The notes below the pieces were generated by a model, which worked only from the letters and a program-made list of their open reading frames with translations, searched no databases and was not told where the DNA came from. This document shows, one piece after another, positions 4,681-30,603 of a stretch of DNA of 30,965 bases (the first letter of the stretch is position 1; every line of letters begins with the position of its first letter). Both the position numbers and the translations under genes were made by a program. Source of the stretch: a virus; UHGV virus genome UHGV-0305615. One strand, written 5' to 3'.

Positions 4681-4695
4681 TTACCGTTGAGGTAA
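4681..4695. promoter_or_regulatory. Predicted operator (dyad TTACCGTTGAGGTAA), leftward early promoter region
   Basis: Exact TTACC-N5-GGTAA dyad just downstream of a leftward TTGACA -35 (rc of 4718-4723). Confidence 0.5.
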
Positions 4696-9574: not shown

Positions 9575-9848
9575 CCTGCAACTTGCCGTCAAAGGTGAAT
9601 ACTTCGATGCCATGATTCGCGGAGAGAAAACGGAAGAGTATCGCCTGTGTAATGACTACTGGAATAAGCGAATTATGTTCCGGGAGTATGACCGCCTGAT
9701 TATCACAAAGGGATATCCGAAGCGTGACGATTCCAGCCGCAGAATTGACGTTCCGTATGGCGGCTATGAAATCAAGACAATCACACATCCGCACTTCGGC
9801 GATAAACCGGTAAAGGTGTACGCGATAAAGGTGAATATTGATGGCTAA
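9567..9848 (+). CDS. Hypothetical protein (93 aa), possible ASCH/PUA-like fold
   Basis: GTG 9567 with AAGGGG RBS, overlapping previous stop; fold guess from LAVKGEYFDAMIRGEKTEEYR pattern only. Confidence 0.45.
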   Translation: MANLQLAVKGEYFDAMIRGEKTEEYRLCNDYWNKRIMFREYDRLIITKGYPKRDDSSRRIDVPYGGYEIKTITHPHFGDKPVKVYAIKVNIDG

Positions 9849-10179
9849 ATCAGCAGCAGAGCGCAAAGCCGCTCAGAGAGCCAGACAAGCTGCATCCGGT
9901 GTACGTAAGCTGGAGATTGTGCTGGATGCTCAGGAAATTGAAATGCTGGAGCGTAGCTGTGCCACGCGTCGCCCCGGGCGTGCGCCTTACGAATTTGGTG
10001 AGTATATAGCGTTACTGATCCGCCAGGATGATGCACGCGTGCACGGGCGTATAAAATCGATCAGCAGAAAACGTTGCGGTAAGTGCGGCGAGAGAGTTCC
10101 TGTGAATTCATGCCCGTGTAATGGTGACTCGCAATGCTGGGTGACTAAAGGCTGGCATGAAACGAAATTAATAGTGTGA
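9841..10179 (+). CDS. Hypothetical protein (112 aa): basic N-terminus plus C-terminal zinc ribbon
   Basis: ATG 9841 with AAAGGTGAA RBS; CGKCGERVPVNSCPCNG; stop codon lies inside the 12-bp palindrome. Confidence 0.55.
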   Translation: MAKSAAERKAAQRARQAASGVRKLEIVLDAQEIEMLERSCATRRPGRAPYEFGEYIALLIRQDDARVHGRIKSISRKRCGKCGERVPVNSCPCNGDSQCWVTKGWHETKLIV

Positions 10180-10187
10180 CATGTCAC
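10176..10187. repeat. Perfect 12-bp palindrome GTGACATGTCAC (copy 1 of 3)
   Basis: Exact sequence; identical copies at 12627-12638 and 29977-29988. Confidence 0.6.
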
Positions 10188-10196
10188 GAAGGTGTT

Positions 10197-10409
10197 ATGC
10201 CAAAAATACGCTACGACCTTGAAGATATGAGAGATAACTCAGCAAATTTTCCGAAAGAGGTTAAATTTCTCATGCATAAGTATGGTTGCGCTAGGAGGGA
10301 TATAGTTATCGACAGTCAGCACCCTTGCGGCGAGGATGTAATTTTCATTCGCGGTAAATGGGAAGGGTATCTTGACGAGAGTTTTTACGATGAATTTGAT
10401 GGACTTTGA
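10197..10409 (+). CDS. Hypothetical small protein (70 aa)
   Basis: ATG 10197 within track ORF 10176..10409; GAAGG upstream with short spacing. Confidence 0.4.
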   Translation: MPKIRYDLEDMRDNSANFPKEVKFLMHKYGCARRDIVIDSQHPCGEDVIFIRGKWEGYLDESFYDEFDGL

Positions 10410-10414
10410 ATACT

Positions 10415-10440
10415 GCCGCCAACTATGGCGGCTTTATTTT
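10415..10440 (+). terminator. Rho-independent terminator separating early genes from packaging genes
   Basis: GCCGCC-AACTAT-GGCGGC followed by TTTATTTT. Confidence 0.65.
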
Positions 10441-10451
10441 GCATGGTACTA

Positions 10452-12552: not shown

Positions 12553-12596
12553 TCCGCTAGTGGGGATAATGTCGTTGATATCCTCTGATGAGGATA

Positions 12597-12626
12597 AAAC
12601 AAAGCCAGCTCATCGGCTGGCTGTTT
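12597..12626. terminator. Bidirectional rho-independent terminator between convergent TerL and minus-strand ORF
   Basis: GCCAGC-TCATCG-GCTGGC hairpin (12604-12621) flanked by an A-run upstream and TGTTT downstream. Confidence 0.5.
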
Positions 12627-12638
12627 GTGACATGTCAC
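12627..12638. repeat. Perfect 12-bp palindrome GTGACATGTCAC (copy 2 of 3)
   Basis: Exact sequence. Confidence 0.6.
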
Positions 12639-12642
12639 GGTG

Positions 12643-13017
12643 TTACTTAATGGCATCAAATCCAGCGTTGATGGCTTCCGCAATATTGATGGCGCTTGTT
12701 TTATCGAAGTGCCCATTCTGAATAAGCGCCGCATGCAGGCATTGTAACTTCATGTTGTATAAGTGTTCGCTCATGTAATCATTATCACGTTTTTCCATTT
12801 CAGAATGTTGTGCTGTTATCCAGTCATGGAACGTAACGCTAGTACCATGGTCTTCGCTAAGAGTTAACCCGGCCAGTCCCTCACTCTGAATTACTTCGTA
12901 ATGCATTTCATTACCAGCAAAAACGCCATAAAAAACGCAGTCTTCAGCCTGAACGATACGAGAATATTTTAATGGCCATTCATTTAGATACTTAGCCAAC
13001 ATATCAATTGTTTTCAT
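12643..13017 (-). CDS. Hypothetical protein (124 aa), minus-strand insert between TerL and portal
   Basis: Complete ORF with AAGGTGAG RBS; lower GC than flanks; no recognised domain. Confidence 0.55.
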   Translation of the reverse strand: MKTIDMLAKYLNEWPLKYSRIVQAEDCVFYGVFAGNEMHYEVIQSEGLAGLTLSEDHGTSVTFHDWITAQHSEMEKRDNDYMSEHLYNMKLQCLHAALIQNGHFDKTSAINIAEAINAGFDAIK

Positions 13018-13028
13018 GATCTCACCTT

Positions 13029-13052
13029 AAAAAAATGCCCGGCGACCCGGGC
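13029..13052 (-). terminator. Rho-independent terminator on minus strand between tRNA and the 124-aa ORF
   Basis: GCCCGG-CGAC-CCGGGC hairpin followed on the minus strand by a T-run (A-run 13029-13035 on plus). Confidence 0.5.
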
Positions 13053-13215
13053 GAACTGGAAGCAATGAGTTATGCCTTCCGTGGCTGTACTGGTTTACAG
13101 CATGAAGTCATCGCAATGGCGTCCTGCTGTAAAAAGGGCGGTGATAGTTCTTCAAGGGAAACCATCACCGCCAAGCACCTGGAACTTCTGGCATCACGGT
13201 CCTTAGGCGTGATTC

Positions 13216-13292
13216 TGGCGTGGCATGCAGGATTCGAACCTGCGACCAACCGCTTAGAAGGCGGTTGCTCTGTCCGACTGAGCTAATGCCAC
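13216..13292 (-). tRNA. tRNA-Arg (anticodon UCU)
   Basis: 77-nt minus-strand sequence GTGGCATTAGCTCAGTCGGACAGAGCAACCGCCTTCTAAGCGGTTGGTCGCAGGTTCGAATCCTGCATGCCACGCCA folds as a cloverleaf: 7-bp acceptor stem, GCTC/GAGC D-stem, ACCGC/GCGGT anticodon stem with loop CTTCTAA, GCAGG/CCTGC T-stem with TTCGAAT loop, encoded CCA. Confidence 0.9.
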
Positions 13293-15620: not shown

Positions 15621-15913
15621 CAGATTACGAAGACGATCAACTGAAAGAAGAAAACGCCCGTAAGCAACGTGACATGGCACAGCGTGAAATTGATGACATT
15701 CGCTTTGTCATGAGCAGTGAACAGGGGCGTCGCGTTGTCTGGTCGGTGCTGGAGAAAGGCCGGGTGTTTTCCGCTATCTCTCCGATGGATGCTATGGCAA
15801 TGGCATTTAATGAGGGGCAACGCAATCTGGCGCTGGAACTGTTTCAGCGCGTTATGGCGCATTGCCCTGAACAGTATTTGAAGATGGCCAAAGAGGCCAG
15901 TGAACAGGAGTGA
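15617..15913 (+). CDS. Hypothetical head-module protein (98 aa)
   Basis: Complete ORF overlapping the portal stop. Confidence 0.55.
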   Translation: MTDYEDDQLKEENARKQRDMAQREIDDIRFVMSSEQGRRVVWSVLEKGRVFSAISPMDAMAMAFNEGQRNLALELFQRVMAHCPEQYLKMAKEASEQE

Positions 15914-25683: not shown

Positions 25684-28600
25684 TGCCGATATATGAACAG
25701 GATCCTAAAGAGTTGCTTGGCGAGGATATTCAGCAAATAGCAGCACCTGATGACAGTAATTTCTATATGGAAACACCTTCTTTGCTTTCTGCTGTGAACC
25801 CATTTACCAGTGATCAACGCGTTCAAAGGTCTAGACAAGCAGCATTTCGTATAGATAACACGCTGGGTAGCTTTATTGCCAGTGCTCCTTTCAGTCAGTT
25901 TGACAGGGTTGAAGGATATAACCCATTTGATAACGATGCAGCAGATATTAAAGGCTATGAAGATTTTGCAGATTCGTTTATCAACTCCGGTTCGCATGAA
26001 GAAACAATGGCAATTAAACATCGAATCGATAAGCAAAGAACAGATAGAGAATATCTATCTGAAATGGGTGGTGCTGGTACTATTTCAAGCTTAGCAATGG
26101 GAATGATAGACCCGGTTAATGTGGCTGCAATGTTCATCCCTGTAGGGGCGGTAGCGCGTGGAGGAAGTATTGCTGAGACGGCAGGGCGTTTTGCCCTGGC
26201 GAATGCTGCTGGTGGGGGAGTATCAGAAGCCGCATTACAGGCCACTCAGGAAGCTCGCTCACCGATGGAGAGCGTATCGAACGTTGTTGTTGATGCTCTC
26301 GTTGGTGGGATCCTTGGTGCTGGTGCACAGCTACTTGCTGGACCTAGCGCGCGCGAGGCAGTGGTTAACTCAGTAGGTAATCATTTGAGAGGTATGGATT
26401 CTCCTCAAAGCATTGGTGCAGCTCAGGTTTTCAATACCACACTCGATCAGGAACAGCTCGCTGGACTTGGACTTGCTAACAAAACGTTGAGTGTCACTCC
26501 TGCTGGCCGCTTGGCTCAATCACCATCTCTTGTCTCCCGTCAGATTAACCAGCAGCTTGCCGAAAATAACTATTTCTTCGCCAAAAATGATGAGGGGTTG
26601 GCTACGTTTACGGCAGTCGAGACTAAGATTAAGCAATACGACGCCATGCTTTATAAGCAGATGGAAGCCACTCGTGATGCTTACCAGCAGTACAGCAAAT
26701 CTGTTAGCGCCCGCGGCGTGAAGAGGATGAACTTTATTGATTTCAATGAAGCTGTTGGCATGGCTATGCGCCGTGGTGATCAGAGTGATATTCCTGAGGT
26801 TTCACAAGCAGCCGCCAGAATCCGCCCCATTTTTGAGACCACAAAAGCCCGTATGCAGGAACTGGGGATCCTTCCTGAGGATATCGATGTCGTGACGGCG
26901 AAAAGTTATCTTCCCCGCATTTATAAGTTCGATAAGATACTTTCCGACCGCACTGAATTCAGAGGGCGAATTGCCAACTGGATACAAGGGATTAGTGCCA
27001 AAGGTGCTGACAAAGCAGGTCAGCGAATTGAAAGGATAAATTCATTGCTAAAAACTGCAGAGGAATCGGCACCGCGCGCTGATGCTCTCGCTAGTGAAAT
27101 CGCTGAAGCGGAGAAATGGTCTGGTAAAAAAATTCTACTCATGGAAGAACTGGATAAACGAAATAAGCTTATATCTCAGGAGACTGACACACAGGCGCGT
27201 CTTACAAGAATAGAAAAAGAGTTGGCCGAGACTTCATCAGAAAAACTTCAGGCAAGAATGATGAAAGAAAGTTCTGACCTTAAAACACGCCTTGATGATA
27301 TAGCGCAGGCAAAGAGTGAGCTTCCTGTCTATCAGCGCCATATGGAGTTGCTGGATAATCCACGGAAATATCGTTCTGAGCTTCGCCGACTGCAAAAACG
27401 GGCAAATTCAACCACAAGGCTGAATGCAAGCCGCGAACGAGCACTGAAGCAGATGGAGCCTCTATCCCGAGAGGAAGCAGAGGACGCTGCTGACGAGATC
27501 GTGAATAAAATAATAGGCGCACCTTCCGGGCTTGTACCAGCCGATATTATCCCAGAGAGACTCGTTGGTCGGGCTGGTTTCACTAAAAGCAGAACGCTGC
27601 TTATTCCTGATGAGCGTATAGAAGATTTTCTTGAATCAGATGTTAACTACATCATGGAAAGTTATCTCCGGCAGGTGGCACCAGAAATTGAGCTGACTGC
27701 GCAGTTTGGCCGTAAAGATATGGGGGAGCAAATCCGTCAGGTTAGTGAGGAATATACCCGGCTAATAAAAGAGGCTAAAACACCTAAACGACGTGCAGTT
27801 CTTGAGAAGCAACGGGAGGCTGATATTAGGGATATTACGGCTATGCGTGATCGACTGCTTGGTACTTACGGTGCACCTCAAGATCCACGCAGTTTCTTTG
27901 TTCGTGCCGGGCGAGTTGCTAGGAATATTAACTTCCTCCGTTTGCTTGGTGGAATGACTGTCTCCGCTGCAACTGATCTGATGCGACCGATGATGCAGCA
28001 TGGCCTGAGAAAATCTCTCGGACCAATGGTAAGCATGCTTAAAAATATGGACTCAGTGAAAATTGCAACCAGGGATTTGCGAGAAATGGCCGTTGGGCTT
28101 GATTATGTCCTGTCTACGCGTACAAAGGCTATAGCGGATCTTACTGACCCCTATAGCCGGAGAAGCGCCGCTGAGCGAGGTCTGAACTGGATGACGCAGA
28201 AATTCGGTAACTGGACGCTGATGAATCAGTGGAACAGCGCACTTAAATCATGGTCCGGGATTATAGTGCAGTCGAGGATACTTGACGCGGCTCGCCAAGT
28301 TTCTGCTGGTGGCACGCTCTCCAAAAGTGAAATGCGGAAGATGGCACAGGTCGGCATCAATGAAGATGTTCTGCGCCGAATCGGGGAGCAATTCGGGAAG
28401 CACGGAGAGGATATGGACGGGCTGTTAACCGGGCATAGTCATCTGTGGGATGACCGTTTCGCTAGAGAGATTTTCCAGTCTGCAGTGCTGAAAGATGTAG
28501 ACTCAGTGATTGTAACGCCTGGCGTAGGTGATACACCGCTGTTTTTTAGTAAAGAAGGCTGGAAGATGATCACGCAGTTCAAAACGTTTATCTTCGCACA

Positions 28601-29072
28601 GCATAACAGGGTGCTAGTATCTGGTATCCAGCAGGGCGATGCTGCATTCTATCTTGGTGCGCTTGGCACGATTGCGCTTGGCTCAATGGTCTATATGATG
28701 AAACAGAAGTTAAGCGGTCGCGATATCGACTACAGCTGGAATAACCTTGTGAAAGAGGGGATCGACCGGGGCGGAATGCTTGGCTGGCTCTCTGAGCCGC
28801 TGAATACCGTTGAGAACATAAGCGGCGGTAGGTTTGGTCTTGGCGCGATGTTTGGTGCGCCTCCGGTATCAAGGTTTCAGAGTCGTAATGCTATTGGTGC
28901 TTTACTTGGTCCTACCTTTGATCTTGGCGGTGATGCCGCGACGGTTGCGAATGGTGTACTTAACGGAGAATTTGACAGCCAGCAAACCCACGCGGTCCGT
29001 AAAATGCTACCTTTTCAGAACCTGTGGGCGATATCACCGTTACTAAATAAAGTTGAAGAGCAGATGAAATAG
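25683..29072 (+). CDS. Large internal virion / ejection protein, gp16-position
   Basis: 1129 aa; TAATG overlap with previous gene; call from size and position. Confidence 0.55.
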   Translation: MPIYEQDPKELLGEDIQQIAAPDDSNFYMETPSLLSAVNPFTSDQRVQRSRQAAFRIDNTLGSFIASAPFSQFDRVEGYNPFDNDAADIKGYEDFADSFINSGSHEETMAIKHRIDKQRTDREYLSEMGGAGTISSLAMGMIDPVNVAAMFIPVGAVARGGSIAETAGRFALANAAGGGVSEAALQATQEARSPMESVSNVVVDALVGGILGAGAQLLAGPSAREAVVNSVGNHLRGMDSPQSIGAAQVFNTTLDQEQLAGLGLANKTLSVTPAGRLAQSPSLVSRQINQQLAENNYFFAKNDEGLATFTAVETKIKQYDAMLYKQMEATRDAYQQYSKSVSARGVKRMNFIDFNEAVGMAMRRGDQSDIPEVSQAAARIRPIFETTKARMQELGILPEDIDVVTAKSYLPRIYKFDKILSDRTEFRGRIANWIQGISAKGADKAGQRIERINSLLKTAEESAPRADALASEIAEAEKWSGKKILLMEELDKRNKLISQETDTQARLTRIEKELAETSSEKLQARMMKESSDLKTRLDDIAQAKSELPVYQRHMELLDNPRKYRSELRRLQKRANSTTRLNASRERALKQMEPLSREEAEDAADEIVNKIIGAPSGLVPADIIPERLVGRAGFTKSRTLLIPDERIEDFLESDVNYIMESYLRQVAPEIELTAQFGRKDMGEQIRQVSEEYTRLIKEAKTPKRRAVLEKQREADIRDITAMRDRLLGTYGAPQDPRSFFVRAGRVARNINFLRLLGGMTVSAATDLMRPMMQHGLRKSLGPMVSMLKNMDSVKIATRDLREMAVGLDYVLSTRTKAIADLTDPYSRRSAAERGLNWMTQKFGNWTLMNQWNSALKSWSGIIVQSRILDAARQVSAGGTLSKSEMRKMAQVGINEDVLRRIGEQFGKHGEDMDGLLTGHSHLWDDRFAREIFQSAVLKDVDSVIVTPGVGDTPLFFSKEGWKMITQFKTFIFAQHNRVLVSGIQQGDAAFYLGALGTIALGSMVYMMKQKLSGRDIDYSWNNLVKEGIDRGGMLGWLSEPLNTVENISGGRFGLGAMFGAPPVSRFQSRNAIGALLGPTFDLGGDAATVANGVLNGEFDSQQTHAVRKMLPFQNLWAISPLLNKVEEQMK

Positions 29073-29513
29073 CTATTCACAATTAGTGATGGCGTATGTA
29101 TCAAATATATTGCCATCACTAAATACATACCTATACTCAATCTCTCCGCCAAGGTGAATAAATGCTTTCATTTGCCTGTTGGAGCAAATGCTCGATTTTG
29201 AATAATTTCGCATTACACTCTTTAATTTATTTTCTAAGGTTACATCACCATTATAAACTTTTGATAAATAGCTGTTGTTGTAATTAAGATGCGCTACAAC
29301 TAAAAGTTTGTTTAGTATTGCATTTATTGAAACAATAGACATATTATCATTCAATTTTATGGGAAGTGACTTTCCTGCTTCTGATGCAATTTTGTTTGCA
29401 TGTGCACACATATCCTCATTTATTAAATTCTTAAAACATATGTCGTTTGCAAACGAAAAAATTGGTAGGATAAACAAAACGGTAGCTGTAATAGCGTGCA
29501 TCGGCTTAATCAT
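29073..29513 (-). CDS. Hypothetical secreted protein (146 aa) with N-terminal signal peptide, AT-rich cargo gene
   Basis: MIKPMHAITATVLFILPIFSFA then NDICF...; 4 Cys; coding DNA roughly one-third GC versus ~50% in flanks. Confidence 0.55.
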   Translation of the reverse strand: MIKPMHAITATVLFILPIFSFANDICFKNLINEDMCAHANKIASEAGKSLPIKLNDNMSIVSINAILNKLLVVAHLNYNNSYLSKVYNGDVTLENKLKSVMRNYSKSSICSNRQMKAFIHLGGEIEYRYVFSDGNIFDTYAITNCE

Positions 29514-29525
29514 TAGGTGACCTTT

Positions 29526-29975
29526 ATGTTCAAGAAGATGATCAACAGATTAATCGGTGGTAAGGAGGTTAGCAATAAAATTCAACCTCTTATCTTTAAG
29601 GATAACTTTTCAGCTTTTGAGTATGCGTGTAAGTATCTTGACACAAGCCTTTCAGCCAATAAACCAATGCCAGCCATCATCATACCTGGTCCCAGTGGGG
29701 AACAGCCAGTTTTGCTAGATTCTGGAAGACAAAGGGCAATGCTGAAGGTGTGCTCAGCTGATGGTGGATTTTTTGTTATTGCCGATTCATCTTACAGCAA
29801 AGGACCAAAGCTGAGGATTGGTGATCTTGTTGCTTGGTTGCCTGTGAGTTATGCCGAAGAATTAACGGATAAAATAGAAGATCCTCGCTCCGCTATGGTT
29901 GGCTTTATATTGGGAACCATTCATCCTGAACTAACATCTACTGGCTGGAAGGGTAAAGAAAGATTTCGCAAGTAG
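29526..29975 (+). CDS. Hypothetical cytoplasmic protein (149 aa), AT-rich cargo gene
   Basis: ATG 29526 with AGGTGA RBS (track start 29517 is GTG); divergent from the secreted-protein gene with only ~12 bp between starts. Confidence 0.5.
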   Translation: MFKKMINRLIGGKEVSNKIQPLIFKDNFSAFEYACKYLDTSLSANKPMPAIIIPGPSGEQPVLLDSGRQRAMLKVCSADGGFFVIADSSYSKGPKLRIGDLVAWLPVSYAEELTDKIEDPRSAMVGFILGTIHPELTSTGWKGKERFRK

Positions 29976-29976
29976 C

Positions 29977-29988
29977 GTGACATGTCAC
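29977..29988. repeat. Perfect 12-bp palindrome GTGACATGTCAC (copy 3 of 3)
   Basis: Exact sequence, 1 nt after the TAG of the 149-aa gene. Confidence 0.6.
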
Positions 29989-30013
29989 AGGCCGCTTTCG
30001 CGGCCTTGTTTTT
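29989..30013 (+). terminator. Rho-independent terminator
   Basis: AGGCCGC-TTTC-GCGGCCT hairpin followed by TTGTTTTT. Confidence 0.6.
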
Positions 30014-30173
30014 AACGAATGCCACCGCCGCCCGGGCGGGAATCCGCAGAACGCCCACCGCAGCGGGAGCCGTCAGCGGCAGTATCGCTGTCGTGCTGAC
30101 AACGACCGGCAAAGGCCTGAGTTGAAGCTACCAGAGACAACAAAACGAACAGTGCAGCAAATGCTTTTTTCAT
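30012..30173 (-). CDS. Hypothetical small secreted peptide (53-aa precursor, 2 Cys in mature part)
   Basis: Internal ATG 30173 of track ORF 30012..30245; MKKAFAALFVLLSLVASTQAFA signal-peptide-like; upstream TTGACG-16-TATAGA promoter-like element; RBS weak. Confidence 0.35.
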   Translation of the reverse strand: MKKAFAALFVLLSLVASTQAFAGRCQHDSDTAADGSRCGGRSADSRPGGGGIR

Positions 30174-30245
30174 TGTGACATTTCCATCTATAAGCCACCT
30201 CGATGTGGCGTCAATGAGTGTAGCACTGACTTTTGTTTCGTCCAT

Positions 30246-30266
30246 AAAAAAGCCCGCAACGCGGGC
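30246..30266 (-). terminator. Rho-independent terminator ending the membrane-protein operon
   Basis: GCCCGC-AAC-GCGGGC hairpin followed on the minus strand by T6 (A-run 30246-30251 on plus). Confidence 0.7.
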
Positions 30267-30270
30267 TTAT

Positions 30271-30603
30271 TCAGTTATTTACTTTCTTTGGCACTATTGC
30301 TGATAATGAGATCATAAAGCCAGTTAGAGCAGCAATAATTAATGGGAATATGAAAGCATCTGAAGTTCTCAGTGGATTCTTCATATCGAACAGAATAACA
30401 ATGAAGAATGCGCTGGTTGCAAAAGTAGATGATGAATAAACCTCATTCATCTTGTATTGCAACTTATCCAAAGAAAAAGGAGGCGTATCTTTGCAAACGG
30501 CATCCCATATCAGATGAACAGCAAGATAAGCAATGCACAGTATGAAATAAAACCTTGTCAATTGCTGTGCATCTCTGGGCGCAAGCCAAGATAAATCAGG
30601 CAT
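30271..30603 (-). CDS. Hypothetical membrane protein (110 aa, about three predicted TM segments)
   Basis: Hydrophobic stretches FYFILCIAYLAVHLIW, FATSAFFIVILF, AFIFPLIIAALTGFMISLSAIV; start 1 nt after upstream gene's stop. Confidence 0.6.
   Translation of the reverse strand: MPDLSWLAPRDAQQLTRFYFILCIAYLAVHLIWDAVCKDTPPFSLDKLQYKMNEVYSSSTFATSAFFIVILFDMKNPLRTSDAFIFPLIIAALTGFMISLSAIVPKKVNN

Follow-up and report, generated by a model that had tools for sequence, protein, structure and literature searches.

The palindrome GTGACATGTCAC, with the consensus GTGAC-N2-GTCAC, directly abuts an intrinsic terminator near the right end of the window, the term used here for the whole 30,965-nucleotide stretch of DNA that was analysed. 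Comparison of sequences indicates that this 37-bp feature is one of three fixed backbone copies in Uetakevirus-type prophages. We consider it somewhat probable that the palindrome is a protein-recognition site bound by the product of a phage gene, designated here the gp49-family gene, and that palindrome and abutting terminator together insulate operon ends and anchor gene replacement. The parts of this proposal would rank in descending order of support, with the recognition site and its gp49-family binder ahead of insulation, which is put forward as a hypothesis, and insulation ahead of the anchoring of swapped genes. By megablast against phages and E. coli prophages, the window is a phiV10/epsilon15-like podovirus of the genus Uetakevirus, an E. 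coli prophage.

Three copies of the palindrome and their terminators

Exact copies of the 12-mer occur three times in the window (at 10176, 12627 and 29977), together with a one-mismatch copy at 15669 that is possibly due to chance; coordinates are collected in Table 1. The number of matches expected at no more than one mismatch is 0.04 by dinucleotide-preserving shuffles, and none of 100 shuffles reached four. According to a repeat finder, likeness between the copies scarcely reaches past the 14-bp form YGTGACATGTCACR.

Table 1. Palindromes, terminators and neighbouring genes in the window.
Feature	Position	Strand	Evidence or remark
gp49-family gene, 112 aa	9841..10179	+	phrog_536 'transcriptional regulator'; epsilon15 gp49 / phiV10 p55 / N15 gp46
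Palindrome copy 1	10176..10187		bases 2-4 (TGA) serve as the gp49-family stop codon
Small accessory gene, 70 aa	10197..10409	+	phrog_1541; between palindrome 1 and its terminator
Terminator GCCGCC-AACTAT-GGCGGC plus TTTATTTTGC	10415..10442	+	closes the early-right operon before a repressor operator and terS
Terminator of copy 2, stem AGCCAGC/GCTGGCT, tail TTGTTTTATC	12593..12622	-	terminator scan (12622..12603)
Palindrome copy 2	12627..12638		exact; syntenic in phiV10, epsilon15, Tyrion, SPN1S and 7 genome loci
Cargo gene between TerL and portal module	12643..13017	-	phrog_4846
One-mismatch copy GTGACATGGCAC	15669..15680		inside a small gene after the portal gene; also in phiV10 (5306), absent from epsilon15
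A+T-rich cargo gene	29073..29513	-	phrog_8772
Cargo gene, likely start ATG 29527	29517..29975	+	phrog_9944, PHROG match 1.5e-92; ends 1 nt before the palindrome
Palindrome copy 3, GTGACATGTCAC	29977-29988		exact match; 14-bp form CGTGACATGTCACA
Intrinsic terminator, stem AGGCCGC/GCGGCCT, loop TTTC, T-run TGTTTTT	hairpin 29989-30006, T-run 30007-30013	+	terminator scan
Convergent small secreted/membrane peptide gene	30012..30245	-	phrog_3117 / phrog_14503, 'membrane associated protein, moron'

At copy 3, the + strand ORF 29517..29975 ends in a TAG stop codon at 29973-29975, followed by a single C and then by the palindrome. The adjoining hairpin, called on the + strand by the terminator scan, has seven pairs, six of them G-C, and the tail TGTTTTTAAC. 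It is annotated as a terminator in phiV10, it alone makes up the RNA fold centroid at this copy, and it has the G+C-rich stem-loop and T-run of an intrinsic terminator, the structure being kept by compensatory substitutions. This terminator is predicted to end the long structural-gene operon together with the upstream cargo gene. The preliminary description, which set the palindrome against an AGGCCGC-TTTC-GCGGCCT hairpin and T-run at 29977-30013, matches the sequence base for base. It also correctly had the T-run overlap the stop codon of the convergent peptide gene, since that codon (TTA on the + strand, 30012-30014) covers the last two T's of TGTTTTT at 30007-30013; the likely start of this minus-strand ORF is ATG 30172-30174, giving 53 aa. 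The pair of cargo genes to the left, described as A+T-rich, has a GC fraction of 0.30-0.33 at 29000-29600 vs about 0.50 in the flanking tail gene. Searches with the cargo genes and gp49 against Pfam, NCBIfam, PDB sequences and PADLOC returned nothing informative, and the phrog_9944 gene had no match in Pfam, NCBIfam or PADLOC.

The hairpin at copy 2 lies 4 nt after the palindrome when read on the minus strand, where it terminates the cargo gene 12643..13017. On the + strand the same hairpin trails TerL, and the poor T-run after it, GTTTGTG, extends into the palindrome. Relatives show a compensatory A-T/C-G change in its stem. The preliminary description saw after TerL the same arrangement as at copy 3, and palindrome and terminator are indeed both present there; their order on the + strand, however, is hairpin and then palindrome. 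Because this order is reversed and the terminator is called on the minus strand, the matching order belongs to gene 12643..13017 rather than to TerL. This phrog_4846 gene is swapped in relatives (phiV10 p03 / 'Gp49 family protein' type, and others). The cargo region between TerL and the portal gene also carries a tRNA-Arg (anticodon TCT) at 13216-13292 on the minus strand, overlapped on the opposite strand by ORF 13035..13286 (+), which has a phrog_4647 match and may not be a real gene.

Copy 1 reads G-TGA-CATGTCAC on the stop of ORF 9841..10179. PhiV10 and most E. coli relatives have a deletion of the phrog_1541 gene, which separates it from its terminator in the window. A fourth, degenerate copy of the palindrome was noticed in epsilon15 (GTGACATGGCAT, L004 26618) and SPN1S (GTGACATGTCAT, L006 26722), in a part of the genome outside the window, where it overlaps the TGA stop of the Rz spanin gene, which closes the lysis cassette. 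The early region of the window also holds an Rfam match to sRNA-Xcc1 at 632-721 on the minus strand (64.8 bits vs a gathering score of 53).

The exact 12-mer is found at three syntenic places in epsilon15, SPN1S and Tyrion, whose terminase-capsid region shares only 77-82% identity with that of the window. These places are the stop of the gp49 homologue upstream of terS, the junction on the TerL side between the hairpin and the minus-strand gene, and the position before the terminator of the structural operon. In phiV10, copies 2 and 3 are exact and copy 1, next to a deletion, has one mismatch. We aligned 23 distinct palindrome-hairpin units from the window, the named phages, IMG/VR contigs and prophages of other genera. 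Two of the seven pairs in the hairpin stem are changed on both sides (CG/GC in 10 sequences, CG/AU in 4), 99.4% of stem cells pair, and the covariation score was reached by none of 500 shuffles. The half-sites of the palindrome are invariant in all 23 units, a single unit differing at a centre base. Invariance of the palindrome beside a hairpin that covaries freely argues for recognition of the sequence itself.

The operator of the prophage repressor, by the annotation of epsilon15, is ATTACC-N5-GGTAAT. Eight copies occur in the window, at 4681, 4743, 5455, 7762, 7824, 10452, 13615 and 30820; they surround the repressor gene and also lie upstream of terS, the portal module, the right-hand cargo region and other units. 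Their placement suggests that the prophage repressor may directly control several late and cargo transcription units. The palindrome itself was rejected as a repressor operator, as the two differ in sequence and none of the eight operators falls at a palindrome.

Linkage of the palindrome to the gp49-family gene

The preliminary description missed that a gene of DNA-binding type has its stop codon inside copy 1, and that this pair of gene and site is conserved in several unrelated groups of temperate phages. The gp49 family is small, with 221 clusters at 50% identity in 1.84 billion representatives. Its proteins have no Pfam match even at E = 10 over 34 family members, and none in NCBIfam. A scan of IMG/VR with the 14-mer returned many contigs that carry the motif on the stop codon of a gp49 homologue, some of these homologues being only about 50% identical.

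An unbiased set was obtained by fetching loci through protein similarity alone, which gave 44 usable loci from different bacterial (Enterobacterales) species, 840 kb in all. GTGAC-N2-GTCAC occurs no more than 20 nt from the homologue's stop in 32 of the 44 loci, mostly at the same one-base offset, and within 300 nt of it in three more; a site at the stop codon itself is absent from 12. Where the C-terminus of the protein differs, the site lies a few bases after the stop, so that its position is independent of the reading frame. The half-sites are invariant across these loci, with AT, AC/GT or CT as the centre dinucleotide. Spacing is strict: the 44 loci hold 62 sites with N2 against 0.8 expected and one site with N3, each spacing from 0 to 8 other than N2 yields zero to two sites, and half-sites in reversed order at spacings of 0-6 yield none.

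Named phages from several groups show the same linkage. N15 gp46 and phiKO2 p45 have GTGACTGGTCAC on the stop codon, the P2-like Yersinia phage vB_YenM_56.17 has TTGTGACGCGTCACAA on the stop codon as the sole site in that phage, and in Pectobacterium ZF40 the motif lies 2 nt after the homologue's stop. Vibrio phage K308 has three sites, two of them exactly 19 nt upstream of start codons, one of which is that of terS. In Serratia and Symbiopectobacterium prophages, the order of stop, palindrome and terminator recurs between a scaffold-like gene and the next gene. Judged from these sequences, the pair of gene and site is conserved across podovirus, siphovirus (N15-like), P2-like and lambdoid prophages. 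Extra copies of the site are not universal, as shown by the 12 of 44 loci without a stop-codon site and by the Yersinia phage with its one site.

The gp49 protein was modelled with AlphaFold2 from a 34-sequence alignment (pLDDT 72). The model has a basic N-terminal helix at 5-18, an extended segment at 19-29 (RKLEIVLD), helices at 30-42 and 52-75, and a C-terminal Cys knuckle; the family-invariant residues R8, K9, Q12 and R13 sit in the N-terminal helix (ERKAAQRxR). A plausible description of the predicted protein is a ribbon-helix-helix DNA-binding protein with a zinc ribbon, and the invariant residues of the N-terminal helix suggest a part that would suit the reading of invariant half-sites. 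Across the homologue loci, no covariation was found between the centre dinucleotide and residues of the predicted beta strand, so there is no covariation of specificity to prove recognition. A fold search of a viral structure library returned only a fragment of the same family. From the linkage of gene and site, we infer that the gp49-family protein is the most likely binder of the palindrome.

Several other observations were made in and around these loci. N15 (L175) has three GTGAC-TG/CA-GTCAC sites with the same centre, at 28550, 33237 and 39269: one on the gp46 stop, one downstream of gene 33 and one inside repA. In some prophages (L127, L128, L134, L140, L142 and L143), LexA-box-like sequences of the TACTGT-N8-ACAG type and a promoter-like TTGACT come after the palindrome or after the gp49 homologue, which suggests that a gene that may be SOS-controlled stands right after the gp49 module in some prophages. 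In some lambdoid prophages a Q-type antiterminator gene begins with codons that contain the 12-mer (ATG CGT GAC ATG TCA CAG, M-R-D-M-S-Q), and others have it inside coding regions, as in ...ATCDMSR... (both kinds are among L013, L018, L023, L075, L116 and L153:256); these may be either functional sites or coincidences of coding. The TerL homologues of L129, L148 and L154 have 813-816 codons vs 491, with the tblastn match split in two, a pattern that suggests an insertion in frame, such as an intein. The top score to the gp49-family profile went to P0278, a sequence of 7287 aa, through six matched segments of the Cys-knuckle region; this is probably a repetitive zinc-ribbon protein with no relation to the family. 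Finally, a 24-nt inverted repeat, 92% complementary, joins 9867-9890 in the 5' coding region of the gp49 gene to 28778-28801 in the 3' part of the gene for a 1129-aa tail protein. None of phiV10, epsilon15, Tyrion and SPN1S conserves it, and it is therefore probably fortuitous or strain-specific.

Homology breakpoints at the palindromes

A search with the region 29600-30400 of the window gave 536 matching records, spread over 533 of 5426 complete E. coli genomes, so that about 10% contain the copy-3 unit. Alignment continues to the left of palindrome 3, into the phrog_9944 cargo gene, in only 9 of the 536 records; in nearly all the others it ends no more than about 10 nt from the palindrome. 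Sixty rows were sampled across the ranking of these matches. The left alignment end falls at query 368-388 in 58 of the 60, the palindrome being query 378-389, and the remaining two are records that share the cargo gene. Right ends are scattered (query 415, 435, 451, 492, 652, 670, 801). The shortest matches span query 377-415, or window 29976-30014, a minimal shared island of palindrome and terminator only, and nearly the same stretch as the preliminary description had marked. The boundary role proposed in the preliminary description, which called for such an alignment of relatives, is thus borne out by homology breaks that coincide with the palindrome.

Breaks accompany the other two copies as well. 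Most of the 510 records that match at copy 2 retain TerL, hairpin and palindrome but lose homology at 12645, 7 nt past the palindrome, and regain it about 375 nt later. At copy 1, the 3' end of gp49 is common to 637 genomes and the sequence to its right belongs to several unrelated classes. At least 7-11 different genes abut the copy-3 unit. Many unrelated genes have their 3' ends 0-10 nt from the palindrome, and several take its internal TGA as their stop. The simplest reading that this pattern suggests is that the unit would be the last conserved piece of backbone before replaceable DNA.

The preliminary description had supposed a reused boundary cassette. A cassette that moves with its cargo is contradicted by the fixed syntenic sites of the copies in each Uetakevirus compared and by their flanks. 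The 30-nt flanks of 190 distinct sites, read outward, were linked in a graph: the gp49-end flank has 22 partner classes, the copy-2 hairpin flank 10 and the copy-3 hairpin flank 7, and no partner class is common to any two of the three positions. With disjoint flanks, there is no sign of cassettes moving between sites. The one hint of sequence common to two palindrome positions is a coding remnant: deletion of 10197-10409 leaves a mini-ORF ending in ...DEFDGF (phiV10 junction, L003 39101 to position 60), a similar ...DEFDGF* remnant adjoins palindrome 2 on the other strand in L117 (5351), and L065 (6599) has a similar DNA tail.

The pattern of an anchor for swapped genes is directly visible in these alignments; the mechanism, in contrast, we infer. 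As the last piece of backbone before variable DNA, the exactly conserved unit of 35-40 bp would serve as a homology anchor for the replacement of accessory genes, used by recombinases of the RecET/RecT type, which Uetakevirus-type phages encode. Its resemblance to a 'boundary cassette' would follow from this role as an anchor.

Proposed mechanism, rival readings and known systems

A gp49-family dimer would bind the palindrome, with the invariant basic N-terminal helix and the ribbon-helix-helix sheet reading the DNA and the zinc-ribbon tail left free for a partner. More tentatively, the bound protein and the adjacent hairpin would act as an insulator at operon ends. In the direction of the T-run, the hairpin would terminate unaided. 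In the opposite direction the hairpin lacks a T-run and the palindrome takes its place, 0-4 nt after the stem, so that protein bound there would halt polymerase just after the hairpin, as the hairpin forms. Such a two-way stop would bar convergent cargo or antirepressor transcripts from the terminase and structural genes, and vice versa. The insulator or roadblock role leaves copy 1 unexplained, where the palindrome is 26-230 nt upstream of a terminator and the junction is not convergent. In addition, gp49 lies in an operon with repressor operators, and the protein would therefore be absent in the lysogen, when the cargo genes are presumably expressed.

An alternative that we regard as unlikely is antitermination, in which a gp49-family protein would be loaded at the palindrome onto elongating polymerase, in the manner of Q, and read through the next terminator, joining the early-right operon, terminase, structural genes and tailspike into one late transcript. 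The layout does recall lambda Q and tR', where the last early-right gene is followed by a presumed site, a terminator and the late or packaging genes in a module that stays together in mosaic phages. In many loci the regulator gene is last in the early-right operon, then come the site and a terminator (GCCGCC..GGCGGC, AGCCTC..GAGGCT and AACCGCC..GGCGGTT hairpins 15-35 nt downstream), and on the late-gene strand copy 3 precedes its terminator by 0-1 nt. A zinc ribbon would also be a plausible module for contact with polymerase, a use known from Q and from DksA/TraR-type proteins. The phage system differs from Q, however, in that gp49 has no Q homology and no Q-family Pfam match, that the other copies stand at operon ends, and that the palindrome of copy 2 is on the wrong side of its hairpin, downstream of it on the late-gene strand. 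Nor is any promoter or pause signal conserved at the site, since phages differ in what follows copy 1, and a promoter scan found no promoter at 10150-10250. Each late unit, moreover, already has its own repressor-controlled promoter region.

The other readings fare worse. Site-specific recombination or insertion at the palindrome, with gene, palindrome and hairpin as a mobile cassette in the manner of integron attC, would account for the sharp breakpoints and for the many unrelated genes that end 0-10 nt from the palindrome, some using its TGA. Sharp breaks are expected anyway where backbone meets replaceable DNA; no variable flank is shared by the three positions across the 190 sites, the syntenic places are fixed, and no dedicated recombinase is linked, the sole integrase being a P4-type prophage integrase with its own attP. 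On these grounds an integron-like gene cassette was rejected, and the recombination reading as a whole is highly improbable. So is an element that acts as RNA, a small hairpin or processing site that would set the stability of mRNA 3' ends with no protein on the DNA. The palindrome is transcribed at gene 3' ends and forms a 4-bp stem beside the terminator in minimum-energy folds, but as RNA this hairpin is marginal (-1.2 kcal/mol, z = 0 vs shuffles), its stem never covaries whereas that of the terminator does, and Rfam has no family over the site. Invariant half-sites, a free centre, strict spacing and use in either orientation are instead the signature of a dimeric DNA-binding protein. Boxes for CRP, LexA and similar host factors were rejected, as none fits the spacing; LexA-like boxes do occur downstream of copy 1, only in some prophages. 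A pac or packaging site is unlikely, given that cos phages (N15, P2-like) also carry the pair of gene and site, and there it is remote from the terminase genes.

Binding by a host factor, foremost MatP, by which the phage would position or organise its DNA, is very unlikely in our estimate. It has in its favor that matS, GTGACRNYGTCAC, a 13-bp site with a 3-bp spacer (PMC6907758), has the same half-sites. The spacer in the phage motif is 2 bp, however, the 13-bp spacing is unenriched in the homologue loci (1 vs 62) and never occurs in the window, and a host factor would not require its site to be fused to where a single, specific phage gene stops. True matS sites are reportedly avoided by prophages, with none in a survey of 500 from Escherichia and Salmonella (PMC3603311), a survey that the 12-bp form would have escaped. 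The phage sites also differ from the Ter macrodomain system of E. coli in adjoining terminators inside a 40-kb phage. Membership of gp49 in the MatP family was rejected: hhalign against E. coli MatP gave 0.1% probability, although the MatP search returned only near-identical sequences and so gave no deep MatP profile, and gp49 has no match to PF06303 or PF17414, both of which genuine MatP proteins carry. MatP has a four-helix bundle and a coiled coil, which gp49, by its model, would lack, having a zinc ribbon instead. Literature searches for a MatP-like or matS-like phage system found nothing relevant. We treat the resemblance to matS in site, fold class and dispersed layout as a lead. It is conceivable, if rather doubtful, that it reflects a private MatP-like phage system, in which temperate phages of bacteria with MatP would have a small ribbon-helix-helix/zinc-ribbon protein that uses a matS-like site 1 bp shorter, invisible to host MatP and to matS searches, with its gene joined to one copy of that site and a few more copies set at operon ends.

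Returning to the favored reading, a gp49-bound recognition site, its components are known kinds: a regulator with a palindromic site, an intrinsic terminator, a mosaic boundary. The operators of the ribbon-helix-helix regulators Arc, Mnt, MetJ, CopG, ParG/omega and TraM are at promoters, whereas the phage site is at the regulator's own stop and at gene 3' ends, and these regulators have no counterpart of the C-terminal Cys knuckle of gp49. In T4-type phages, repeats made up of a promoter and a stem-loop flank variable genes and anchor gene replacement. The unit described here is similar in being a conserved 35-40 bp element with a stem-loop that flanks hypervariable genes and coincides with breakpoints. 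It differs in that its units are fixed, are not present on both sides of a gene and show no exchange between positions, and in that the core is a palindrome of the protein-binding type and not a promoter. A module of gene and site shared by several temperate phage groups is undescribed in the literature searched, which made no mention of the sequence GTGACATGTCAC; the ZX5 paper is silent on the motif.

The pair of gene and site points to an unstudied regulatory or DNA-organising function in many temperate enterobacterial phages. The motif is short, exact and easily searched. It borders the accessory-gene hot spots of a prophage family that roughly one in ten complete E. coli genomes carry, and lends itself to delimiting and mining cargo such as toxins, membrane peptides and candidate defence or anti-defence genes. 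Should the MatP-like reading be true, the function of the system in lytic growth would be to organise, insulate or bridge the chromosome of the phage, or to manipulate the host SMC or division machinery, and the hot spots of accessory-gene exchange would be a by-product. The occurrence of matS half-sites with a spacer 1 bp shorter offers a concrete, testable link between phage biology and the organisation of the host chromosome.
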